This document shows, one piece after another, positions 45,239-50,881 of a stretch of 64,000 nucleotides of DNA (position 1 is the first letter of the stretch; the number at the start of each line of letters is the position of its first letter). Source of the stretch: a virus (lineage: Duplodnaviria > Caudoviricetes); IMG/VR virus record IMGVR_UViG_3300043432_000485, positions 1 to 64,000 of that record; one strand, given 5' to 3'. The notes beneath the pieces were generated by a model. That model was not told the DNA's origin. It ran no database searches and saw nothing but the letters and a program-made list of their open reading frames with translations. The position numbers were made by a program, and so were the translations under genes.

Positions 45239-45313
45239 TGGCGGTCCCGAGGTGATTCGAACACCCCTACTGCAATTTTAGAGGTTGCTGCCTGGCCACT
45301 AGGCTACGGGACC
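45239..45313 (-). tRNA. Amber suppressor tRNA, anticodon CUA (tRNA-Trp-like scaffold)
   Basis: Full cloverleaf GGTCCCG/CGGGACC, D stem GCCT/AGGC, anticodon loop CT-CTA-AA, TTCGAAT T loop, G73 and encoded CCA. Confidence 0.93.
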
Positions 45314-48872: not shown

Positions 48873-49052
48873 ATGGAATCCATCAAACCCGCCCCATCAC
48901 CTGATTCCGTGCGCCATGCGATGGTCCTGCACCGTCTGGCGAAGCACCCTTTCGAGAGAAGGATTCCAGGCCGCCTCGTACAACAAGACGGCCTGGATAT
49001 CCACATGGTATGCGGGGTATGCTCAGAAGTGATCTATGTGCTGAGCAACTAG
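48873..49052 (+). CDS. Small hypothetical protein with CxxC
   Basis: GGTGTA motif and GGGG SD upstream; not in supplied ORF track. Confidence 0.5.
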   Translation: MESIKPAPSPDSVRHAMVLHRLAKHPFERRIPGRLVQQDGLDIHMVCGVCSEVIYVLSN

Positions 49053-49366
49053 CGGGAGAGGGCCAGGGGTAGAGAGCTAGTGATCCTCCTCCCCTCGGGT
49101 CCGAGCGCGATTGCAGTCAGCTCGTTGTTGCGATCCGGCTCCCTGAATCTGGACACCTGGATGTACCGGCCTTCAGCTTTCTTGGCCAGTGCCTCCAAGG
49201 CATCCTCATTGGGAGCCACCAGTAGCGCTAGGGTGTTGGACTCTTGGTGCCATTGCTTGGCTACCTATCCATGTTCGAAAATGAACTCGGTTATGGCATG
49301 TATTGATTGTACTGCCTGTTGTGCATAGCTTAGATCAGACCTTACAATCACGTATAGTTTCGAGAT
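49049..49366 (-). CDS. PTH2-like protein with in-frame TAG (49265-49267) and no canonical start next to it
   Basis: ISKLYVIVRSDLSYAQQAVQSIHA...EHG*VAKQW..SNTLALL..FREPD.NNELTAIALGP..TSSLPLAL. Confidence 0.8.
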
Positions 49367-49952
49367 ACGTGATCGCCGTTCGCATTGCTGTGGTGTTGTC
49401 ATGAAAATATCCTAGTCCTTGGTTACAGGGGTTACACAGAAGTCCACGAACCCTGCCTGAGACATGGTCGTGATCTACATCGAATCTATTTGGGGTGCCC
49501 CTACATATTGCACATACCCCACCTTGAAAAGCTAACATGTCATTGTATTCATTTAGGGTTATGCCATGTGTTTTCAATAGGTAGCCATTTTTCCTACGTT
49601 CTTGGTTCTTAGCTACCCAGGCTTGCCATACGATTTTTCTCTTCTCTGGATTGGAATTTCTCCAGGCAGTATTTTTAGCCTTTTGGCACGCTTTGCAACA
49701 GCTTTGGAGGCCTCCTTCACCCGACTTGCTGAGGTGATACTCAGTGACTGGTTTAGTTTCCATACAGGTAGAGCAACGTTTGGAGCCGGTTGTTCTAACC
49801 GGGGCGCCATTCTCGGCTCTGGACTTTCTCCATTCCTTAGTGCGTTCCCTCTGACAAAGCTTACAGTAGGCTCCAACCCCCTGGCTACCCCTGGAAGCTT
49901 TGTGAAAGGAATCTATGGGCAACTCTTCTTGACATCTCGAACATTTCTTCAT
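49335..49952 (-). CDS. Endonuclease VII-family homing endonuclease
   Basis: Tandem CxxC zinc modules; CAIC..DVDHDH..RVRGLLC..CN; low GC. Confidence 0.88.
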   Translation of the reverse strand: MKKCSRCQEELPIDSFHKASRGSQGVGAYCKLCQRERTKEWRKSRAENGAPVRTTGSKRCSTCMETKPVTEYHLSKSGEGGLQSCCKACQKAKNTAWRNSNPEKRKIVWQAWVAKNQERRKNGYLLKTHGITLNEYNDMLAFQGGVCAICRGTPNRFDVDHDHVSGRVRGLLCNPCNQGLGYFHDNTTAMRTAITYLETIRDCKV

Positions 49953-49992
49953 ACAGCAGCAGAGCAACAAGAATAGTATTGAGTCAACAGGC

Positions 49993-50568
49993 TTAGAGGC
50001 CATCTGGACCTCCAAAGAGCTTCTGACAGATGGCACGGCCCCGCCGGTCAATCTGTTTCCACTTGATCTTGAATGACGTGCTCTCTGGGCCTCCAAACAT
50101 GGAGGCGTTTGCGTGGATTTCCGCTAGGCCTGAGATCAACAACGTGGGTGCTTCCGGAAGAGCGCAGAACGCATCTATCCCATCAGCTTTCAAGGTGTGG
50201 ATCTTCATGTCGAGCCGCATCAGATTGGCGGAGGCCTGGGTTCCACCTACGCCAAGCCACGTACGGTACGAGACCTCAGCGTGCTCCGGGAACTTGGTTA
50301 TGCCATCTGACTGGCAGTAAGGCTTCCCACAGTCATGATAGGTCGTGTACTCCTCGATGATGTCGATTGGAGCCAACGCGCTTAACAGCTGCCCTCGATA
50401 CTGTTTGATCCAACTGGGCAGTACCCACCAACCCTCTAGATGCCCTCCTTGCAAATAGGAGATCAACTGGAGGGTGTGCCAACGGACTGACAATCCATGG
50501 TCAAACACTGACTGACCTTTGGTTTGTTGACAGTCCTGCATGTCTTGGATGAGGTCAATCTACGTCAT
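49993..50568 (-). CDS. HD-domain protein; proposed start has TAG as codon 3 (50560-50562)
   Basis: YHDCGKP, FP.HA..S; GAGGA SD 5 nt before ATG-ACG-TAG-ATT, in frame with ATG 50541. Confidence 0.75.
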
Positions 50569-50881
50569 CGGAGTCCTCATCAGCATCAGGGTCCATACCG
50601 GCTAGAATCATGGCATCGAAGTCCAGGTAGCGGACTGCCCACCAGCCTATGATTTCTTTGTCCTTGAGATCCGGGTACCGGGGCCTGTCCTTAGCGTCGT
50701 AGTACCTGGCTTTCAGGTCCTCCATCGTGTAAGGGATGTGCGTTTCATGTCTGCGACGTCGACCATCTTCATAGGTATAGCGCCGCAGCCCTAGGATGGA
50801 TTCGAAAAGCTCATGGTTGGCACATGAGACCTGATACTCTTCCGCACTCATCGGAACCACACCAAACACGCGGGCCGCCAT
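50555..50881 (-). CDS. Hypothetical protein
   Basis: Operon position; start uncertain. Confidence 0.6.
   Translation of the reverse strand: MAARVFGVVPMSAEEYQVSCANHELFESILGLRRYTYEDGRRRRHETHIPYTMEDLKARYYDAKDRPRYPDLKDKEIIGWWAVRYLDFDAMILAGMDPDADEDSDDVD

Follow-up and report, generated by a model that had tools for sequence, protein, structure and literature searches.

An early in-frame amber codon conserved in a phage HD-domain gene: a candidate translational gate tied to a suppressor tRNA

The window, by which we mean the whole stretch of DNA analysed here, comprises 64,000 nucleotides (nt) of a virus of the Caudoviricetes (IMG/VR record IMGVR_UViG_3300043432_000485, positions 1-64,000) and lies within a 203-kb contig (G000). 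Its minus strand carries a gene for an HD-domain protein for which a standard gene caller would choose ATG 50541, and the same frame can be followed upstream, through an in-frame TAG, to another ATG that stands behind a Shine-Dalgarno (SD)-like sequence (Table 1). On the strand of the HD gene the window also encodes its only tRNA, an amber suppressor with the anticodon CUA (tRNA(CUA)), and a PTH2-like (peptidyl-tRNA-hydrolase-like) gene. The subject of this report is the TAG that forms the third codon of the longer HD reading, which we consider to be a candidate gate on the translation of that gene.

Table 1. Positions of the candidate gate and of associated features in the window (ORF, open reading frame)
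Feature	Position	Strand	Remarks
In-frame TAG, codon 3, proposed gate	50560..50562	-	Next codon ATT; from the sequence and relatives
SD-like GAGGA	50574..50578	-	5 nt ahead of the leader ATG; inside Asp-Glu-Asp codons of the upstream ORF
Leader ATG (50568-50566) and ACG (50565-50563)	50563..50568	-	Read from the sequence
Six post-TAG codons ATT GAC CTC ATC CAA GAC (I-D-L-I-Q-D)	50542..50559	-	Fit the family N-terminal helix ..L-I-x-D before Met
HD-domain ORF, 182 residues, ATG 50541 to TAA 49995-49993	49993..50541	-	Start is the standard gene-caller choice
Proposed full-length HD coding sequence with TAG decoded	49993..50568	-	Starts at the leader ATG
Upstream ORF, 108 residues, stop TGA 50557-50555	50555..50881	-	Predicted ORF in an operon-like run
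tRNA, anticodon CUA (amber suppressor), encoded CCA	45239..45313	-	ARAGORN; Rfam RF00005, 51.3 bits
PTH2-like gene, ordinary ATG start, in-frame TAG at codon 46 (49267-49265)	49049..49402	-	Partner of the HD gene in relatives
Endonuclease VII (HNH-type) ORF, between the HD and PTH2-like genes and overlapping both	49335..50096	-	PF02945, E 1e-22

The preliminary description of this locus had reported a GAGGA SD sequence 5 nt before ATG 50568, a TAG at codon 3 whose frame stays open through IDLIQD into ATG 50541, and the lack of an obvious SD sequence at that second ATG. Each of these was borne out: GAGGA occupies 50578-50574, coordinates and frame are as claimed, and the 17 nt preceding ATG 50541 contain no SD-like core. 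In the frame of the HD gene the minus strand reads ATG(50568) ACG TAG(50562-50560) ATT GAC CTC ATC CAA GAC ATG(50541) CAG GAC TGT. In the frame of the upstream ORF it reads ...GAT GAG GAC TCC GAT GAC GTA GAT TGA, with 13 bases then leading to ATG 50541, and the 3' codons of this ORF overlap the SD sequence, the leader ATG and the TAG out of frame. Because the leader sits in this way within the 3' end of another ORF, the arrangement could be chance when judged from the window alone, and within this genome alone it is not statistically remarkable. The 203-kb contig contains five leaders in which an SD sequence and an ATG are followed within 1-12 codons by a stop and the frame then stays open for 120 codons or more; two of the five have TAG. 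Of the longest-ORF starts in the genome, only some 29% have an SD core. The only other leader of the form SD-ATG-(8 codons)-TAG in the contig lies outside the window (G000:C1:153453, minus strand), reads MPLSKNLSP*FDILGGYAMPRSPF... and precedes, in frame, 1161 open codons; this case may be due to chance.

Comparison with relatives reveals how widely the arrangement recurs. Protein searches returned 753 homologues, and among those called longer than 182 residues many start with an extra ..L-I-x-D right before the Met, a pattern into which IDLIQD fits. For 129 non-redundant loci of relatives, drawn from IMG/VR and metagenomes, we followed the reading frame in the DNA from the conserved Met towards its 5' side. 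Of these loci, 101 have a leader of 1-12 codons including its ATG (mode 2), then TAG, 4-15 further codons that end in L-I-x-D, and the conserved Met, and 12 more encode PTH2-HD fusions with the same ATG-x-TAG leader ahead of the PTH2 part, about 125 codons upstream. The stop at the leader position is TAG in 101 loci, TGA in two and TAA in none, whereas the stops that end ORFs in these loci are 58% TAA, 32% TGA and 10% TAG. Both the position and the type of the stop are therefore conserved across diverged homologues, as would be expected of a suppressor-dependent gene. When more distant and cultured relatives are added to the metagenomic loci (177 distinct proteins), 122 have an early TAG, 16 are PTH2-HD fusions with a leader TAG, 11 have a TAG inside the gene, in a surface loop, two have an early TGA and 26 have no gate. 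In a maximum-likelihood tree the ungated homologues fall into 16 small scattered clades, which is the pattern of an apparent repeated loss from a gated ancestor. These relatives are not independent samples, although they cover 35-65% protein identity and widely differing base compositions (25-61% GC).

These comparisons also bear on two further points of the preliminary description. It had suggested that the N-termini of homologues might reach about nine residues before MQDC, and at the DNA level they do, with IDLIQD corresponding to the conserved ..L-I-x-D-Met helix; its contrary case, in which homologues start at the Met itself, holds for gene-caller output only, as the DNA of most relatives has the ATG-x-TAG leader. 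Similarly, the TAG-ATT context to which it had drawn attention recurs, ATT being the commonest codon after TAG (29 of 101 loci), and the base that follows TAG is mostly A (65 loci), otherwise G (19) or C (17), T never being seen there. In E. coli, A after UAG favours suppression and U gives the strongest termination. Searches for more lineages with a TGA gate were unsuccessful: a scan with the L060 protein matched only itself, and a profile scan with distant members gave no further TGA gates. Salmonella phage Arash (L280) and loci L341-L345, L350 and L353 form a clade with an uninterrupted N-terminus (..GG[RH]MYATNF..LI..M) and an HD gene without TAG, yet with tRNA(CUA) in the vicinity. The annotation of Arash shows, immediately upstream, a 'peptidyl-tRNA hydrolase' fragment of 50 residues, so that the gate may persist there only in the PTH2-like gene.

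The stretch that separates the TAG from the Met evolves in the manner of coding sequence. In the 48 loci that have six such codons, position -4 is L in 39, position -3 is I in 40 and position -1 is D in 37, and third codon positions vary freely. No ATG, GTG or TTG occurs in the TAG-to-Met interval of 91 of the 101 loci, and SD-like cores are found ahead of the leader ATG in 62 of the 101 loci but ahead of the conserved Met in four. Furthermore, two lineages have lost the Met while retaining both leader and TAG: the sequence is MK*TLNK and then Leu (CTA) in Stenotrophomonas phages RAS14/CM1, and MKNM*ITKNDLLKA and then Val (GTA) in locus L077. Since RAS14 (L278) has a Leu codon in place of the family Met, its annotated start lies 18 codons inside the domain. 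The AlphaFold2 model computed for the full-length reading reached a mean predicted local distance difference test (pLDDT) score of 95 and a predicted template modelling score of 0.91; its residues 3-12 form a helix that contains the post-TAG residues, the mean pLDDT of residues 1-10 is 97, and the structural alignment to PDB 3WFR begins at model residue 1. By both the codon patterns and the model, coding constraint continues across the stop.

A candidate decoder of the stop accompanies the gene. The commonest tRNA in the loci of relatives is tRNA(CUA), with 101 copies and often two different copies together, and in fully flanked loci all 44 copies are on the strand of the HD gene, at a median distance of about 1.1 kb from the HD Met and downstream of it in about two-thirds of cases. 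Five complete gated genomes (372-572 kb) have no tRNA(CUA) within 6 kb, and four of the five carry one elsewhere. In the two TGA-gated contigs a tRNA(UCA) is present, and no tRNA(CUA) could be detected. Thus, a cognate suppressor occurs in the same genome and stop and anticodon covary, the TGA/UCA pairing being found in one lineage only. The amino acid that tRNA(CUA) might carry could not be read from its sequence, since the 69 distinct sequences fall on several scaffolds and their nearest sense tRNAs are mixed (Arg, Met, Leu, Val, Thr and others) at about 70% identity. Neither is the inserted residue indicated by the 'M-x-Q-..LIxD-M' N-termini of some database proteins (P0028, P0015 and others), where Q is the gene caller's translation of TAG and hence uninformative; public gene calls on short contigs (P0028, P0015, P0039, P0042, P0046 and others) apply code 15 automatically and produce this spurious M-x-Q N-terminus. 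In some of the phages, suppressors that match more than one stop codon coexist: locus L353 has tRNA(CUA) together with tRNA(UUA), and one 572-kb complete phage genome (G005; L264 and L266) has a long-arm tRNA(CUA) of 93 nt together with tRNA(UCA). In one large clade (L001, L015, L024, L026, L029, L110, L123, L126 and others) gene order is conserved, with two to four tRNA-Thr genes, the HD gene, the PTH2-like gene, and one or two genes for tRNA(CUA), followed at a distance of about 2-3 kb by tRNA-Arg(CCU).

What kind of protein lies behind the stop? The preliminary description had called this an HD-domain gene, a label that fold and motif uphold and that Pfam models do not: hmmscan of the protein (P0001) against Pfam-A found no family at E <= 0.1, PF01966 included, and all full-length homologues likewise have no Pfam entry. 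The assignment comes instead from structural comparison with VIA-align and from a profile match to PDB sequences. Residues H15, H69-D70, H87, D111, H115, E141 and H143 (P0001 numbering) are invariant in 25-30 homologues, which suggests an intact metal site; the H...HD...D metal-binding motif is present, and its HD aligns with the HD of PDB 3WFP. The family profile matches one solved protein, PDB 3WFO-3WFS, deposited as 'Poly A polymerase / tRNA processing enzyme', which PMC4810234 lists as the bacterial CC-adding enzyme, and the match pairs YHDCGKP...FPNHA of the phage with FHDIGKP...FYEHD of that enzyme. The best structural match, 3WFR residues 250-448, has a Z score of 15.1 and a root-mean-square deviation of 3.0 Å over 159 residues at 20% identity. 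Further matches at Z 9-11 include PhnZ, PgpH, PPX/GppA, YfbR and the HD domain of GlyRS beta, and the model has the all-helical HD fold; a Foldseek search of the model against the PDB gave no match at E <= 0.001. By sequence and model, the protein is a predicted stand-alone HD domain of 182-191 residues that is closest to that of the bacterial CC-adding enzyme. It resembles the HD-bearing body-tail part of these class II tRNA nucleotidyltransferases but has no nucleotidyltransferase head, and its phosphohydrolase activity is only predicted. In the E. coli CCA enzyme, the HD domain has 2',3'-cyclic phosphodiesterase and phosphatase activity and trims phosphates from tRNA 3' ends.

The PTH2-like gene of relatives shares the peculiarity of its neighbour. 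It has an ATG-x-x-TAG leader of its own in 82 of about 98 loci, the TAG following the leader ATG by 2-4 codons, and no alternative start precedes the conserved KLYVITR. In the window, by comparison, the TAG has a different place, and in relatives the position that corresponds to codon 46 is occupied by varying sense codons (for E, T, I or A). This TAG may mean either that amber dependence has moved or that the copy is decaying. The relatives inspected also differ from the window in that their HD and PTH2-like genes abut or overlap, with no Endonuclease VII ORF between them; the ORF found here, which has several CxxC pairs, looks like an inserted gene of the homing-endonuclease type.

We consider it likely, from these comparisons, that the UAG is a translational gate that ties production of the HD enzyme to a functional suppressor tRNA, and that the enzyme is probably made only when the phage tRNA(CUA) overrides the stop. 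The preliminary description had proposed that an amber at codon 3 serves as an off switch dependent on suppression, and this proposal gains support from the conserved TAG leader, the coding constraint behind it and the presence of tRNA(CUA) in the window and in relatives; readthrough itself we infer. Translation would start at the SD-preceded ATG 50568, and at codon 3 the ribosome would meet UAG, for which release factor 1 and the phage tRNA(CUA) would compete. With suppression the ribosome would continue into the N-terminal helix and on to the full protein, and without a suppressor only a dipeptide would be made. The PTH2-like hydrolase of relatives would be controlled by the same kind of gate. 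As the gate is found only at variable leader or loop positions, any inserted residue may do. Amber dependence appears to be kept even as its site shifts: in the clade of Cronobacter phage GAP32 the TAG is found at codon +33 or +41 of the HD gene, and here at codon 46 of the PTH2-like gene. The purpose of such a gate could be that of a timing device or checkpoint which awaits the supply of phage tRNA, or that of a feedback loop in which enzymes of tRNA ends sense or set suppressor activity. We also considered a regulatory RNA structure at the leader and rejected it. In the minimum-free-energy fold (50545-50580, minus strand), GAUGAGG, which includes the SD sequence, pairs with CCUCAUC of the post-TAG codons, so that leader ATG and UAG both lie in the enclosed loop. 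The energy of this fold is unexceptional (z -0.19), and L014, the one relative whose leader was compared by eye, lacks the anti-SD-like CCUC.

Several observations weigh against this interpretation. The tRNA(CUA) of the window lies 4.7 kb from the HD gene with plus-strand ORFs between them, so the two are not co-transcribed here, as they may be in relatives, and one complete genome (G004) has only a weak and divergent tRNA(CUA) candidate (25 bits), 4 kb upstream. The covariation of stop and anticodon comes from a single lineage, represented by two contigs that are 74% identical. About 15% of homologues are ungated, and several of these still have a tRNA(CUA) nearby. The overlap with the 3' end of another ORF means that the leader sequence is doubly constrained. 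Finally, the Met encoded at 50541 is near-invariant, being present in all but one of 130 non-redundant metagenomic loci (and absent also from RAS14/CM1) and retained even where it is internal in fusions, so that an N-terminally shorter form could arise by initiation or reinitiation at 50541.

This last point leads to the rival explanation that survives best, in which SD-ATG-ACG-TAG is a two-codon upstream ORF, translation restarts at the Met 18 nt downstream as the true N-terminus, and the suppressor is either idle or shifts the ratio of long to short isoforms. The persistence of the Met, even inside fusions, would be accounted for, the TAG lies only 12-45 nt ahead of it, and a Met without an SD sequence of its own would need such coupling. 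There is also precedent in the bar minigenes of phage lambda, two-codon ORFs with a strong SD sequence that are known regulators and are toxic when peptidyl-tRNA hydrolase is limiting. The likeness extends to the series of strong SD sequence, ATG, one sense codon and stop and, here, to a neighbour that is itself a peptidyl-tRNA-hydrolase-like gene; it ends where the present frame continues into a conserved protein and where the stop is always the suppressible one. We nevertheless regard reinitiation as an unlikely explanation. It offers no reason for the choice of TAG (101 loci) over TGA (two) and TAA (none) in loci where TAA dominates as a stop, nor for a change to TGA exactly where the phage has tRNA(UCA). 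It does not explain why the TAG-to-Met codons evolve as coding sequence and form part of the modelled fold, or how RAS14/CM1 and L077 would manage without the Met, and the PTH2-like genes and PTH2-HD fusions have the leader but no start codon after the TAG. A restart at the mid-gene TAG of the GAP32 clade, furthermore, would truncate the domain. A mixed model may apply, with a long isoform in the presence of the suppressor and a short isoform in its absence.

A second rival is genome-wide reassignment of TAG (code 15), under which every TAG would be read as an amino acid and the one discussed here would be one of many. The presence of tRNA(CUA) fits such a code, public gene callers gave Q for the homologous TAG on short contigs, and there are other phages in which only late genes are recoded (bioRxiv 10.1101/2021.08.26.457843). 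The 203 kb examined, from a genome of at least 341 kb, argue otherwise. Under the standard code (code 11) the contig has a coding density of 94% and 240 ORFs with a mean length of 268 residues, and reading TAG as sense improves neither coding density nor gene length. At 56% GC, TAG ends 53 of the 240 ORFs (22%), and the same frame after stops scores as non-coding for all three codons (TAG -0.35, TAA -0.30, TGA -0.49). In-frame stops with coding-like flanks show no excess of TAG (9.9%, versus 7.1% for TGA and 12.2% for TAA), and no excess of in-frame continuation after TAG was found in the loci of relatives. Of the marks of a code-15 phage, only the tRNA(CUA) is present: there are not many in-frame TAGs, and TAG has not been abandoned as a terminator. 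Judged from these 203 kb, the genome is not recoded and uses the standard code, and with the TAG at a conserved place in a variable leader, unlike scattered recoded codons, we think reassignment very improbable. Code-15 phages (TAG = Gln; crAss-like, Lak and other gut phages) are similar in that a phage tRNA(CUA) decodes in-frame UAG and suppressor dependence has been proposed to time translation. Their suppressor tRNAs occur where TAG or TGA has been reassigned in many late genes, in low-GC genomes in which TAG is depleted as a stop (bioRxiv 10.1101/2021.08.26.457843). There TAG is scattered over many late, structural and lysis genes. Here 22% of ORFs still end in it, and the in-frame TAG is restricted to one or two genes related to tRNA, where it occupies a conserved site shortly behind the start (within a few codons) or falls in a single loop.

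Two further rivals can be dealt with briefly. That ATG-ACG-TAG is an accidental out-of-frame reading of the acidic tail (…DEDSDDVD) of the upstream ORF, with the gene starting at 50541, would suit a leader that lies entirely inside that ORF, the five SD-ATG-stop leaders of the contig and the low share of ORF starts with an SD core, which makes an SD-less 50541 not unusual; it is hardly credible when more than 130 distinct relatives share the architecture although their upstream sequence is unrelated and often consists of tRNA-Thr arrays. Equally implausible is a nonsense mutation in a decaying pseudogene, which could point to the mid-gene TAG of the PTH2-like partner and to the homing-endonuclease-type gene that landed between the two, but leaves unexplained an intact HD ORF, the presence of all conserved His, Asp and other invariant residues, and a TAG position common to proteins that are only 35-65% identical.

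Returning to the UAG as a suppressor-dependent gate, its nearest analogue in logic is prfB, the gene for release factor 2 (RF2), where an early in-frame stop also ties a translation-related protein to the decoding of that codon and the mRNA senses the decoding machinery. The analogy is one of logic only: prfB escapes its stop by a +1 frameshift and senses its own product, RF2, whereas escape here would be through a dedicated suppressor tRNA. The AUU start of infC is related in logic. We would go one step further only tentatively, and rather doubt that the step is right: tRNA(CUA) might be a dedicated signalling tRNA and not a step towards a change of code. Its only conserved clients would be an HD phosphoesterase and a PTH2-like ester hydrolase, both acting on tRNA 3' ends; the early UAG would report on the tRNA supply (expressed, with its CCA intact, and charged), or the enzymes would act back on the level of the suppressor. 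If true, this would be a natural closed-loop translational circuit made from a stop codon and a tRNA.

Until now, wholesale reassignment of stop codons has been the explanation given for the suppressor tRNAs of phages. Many jumbo phages that use the standard code carry tRNA(CUA), and for these our findings provide a concrete conserved candidate target, namely one or two genes for tRNA-end enzymes under an early UAG. The gate would also be a natural example of the suppressor-tRNA logic gates that are built in synthetic biology. In the literature searched, of which our coverage is incomplete, we found no description of this UAG gate. The question is testable in culturable phages, as the module is present in XacN1 and Xoo-sp13 (host Xanthomonas), RsoM2USA (Ralstonia), pT24 (Tenacibaculum), and GAP32 (Cronobacter) and its relatives; the enterobacterial phages BF and CBB carry it as well. 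The leader of XacN1 reads AGAGGA..ATG AAG TAG and that of RsoM2USA reads GAGGA..ATG AAA TCG TAG. The authors of the XacN1 genome read through all 18 annotated amber stops and could identify no target genes for its suppressor tRNAs (PMC5852040); a search of that type misses the HD gene because the TAG lies upstream of the annotated start. Similarly, the RsoM2USA paper surmises several potential target genes for tRNA(CUA) and names none (PMC8504454). XacN1 and RsoM2USA belong to the same phage group as the virus studied here and have the same tRNA(CUA), an orphan in the two papers; each also has an HD homologue with an early TAG behind an SD sequence.

The same codon is the source of a systematic annotation error, in which HD genes receive an internal Met as their start, are broken up into several pieces or are given a Q by code-15 callers. 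In XacN1 an HD-PTH2-like fusion (ORF364; L272, AP018399.1 243756-244595) is annotated from an internal Met, with the SD-ATG-AAG-TAG leader 15 nt upstream. In the GAP32 clade the HD gene has a normal N-terminus, and the TAG, at codon +33 or +41, falls within a loop of the model (residues 40-51). Three annotated genes of GAP32 (GAP32_398, GAP32_398A and GAP32_399; L273, NC_019401.1 290461-291027) overlap one HD gene that is split by its in-frame TAG, and GAP32_398A is annotated as a membrane protein. The corresponding pieces in Xanthomonas phage XbC2 (L276) are XbC2_408 and XbC2_409, and in both GAP32 and XbC2 a tRNA annotated as 'Sup-tRNA' or 'tRNA-Pyl (CTA)' lies 2.3-3 kb downstream.

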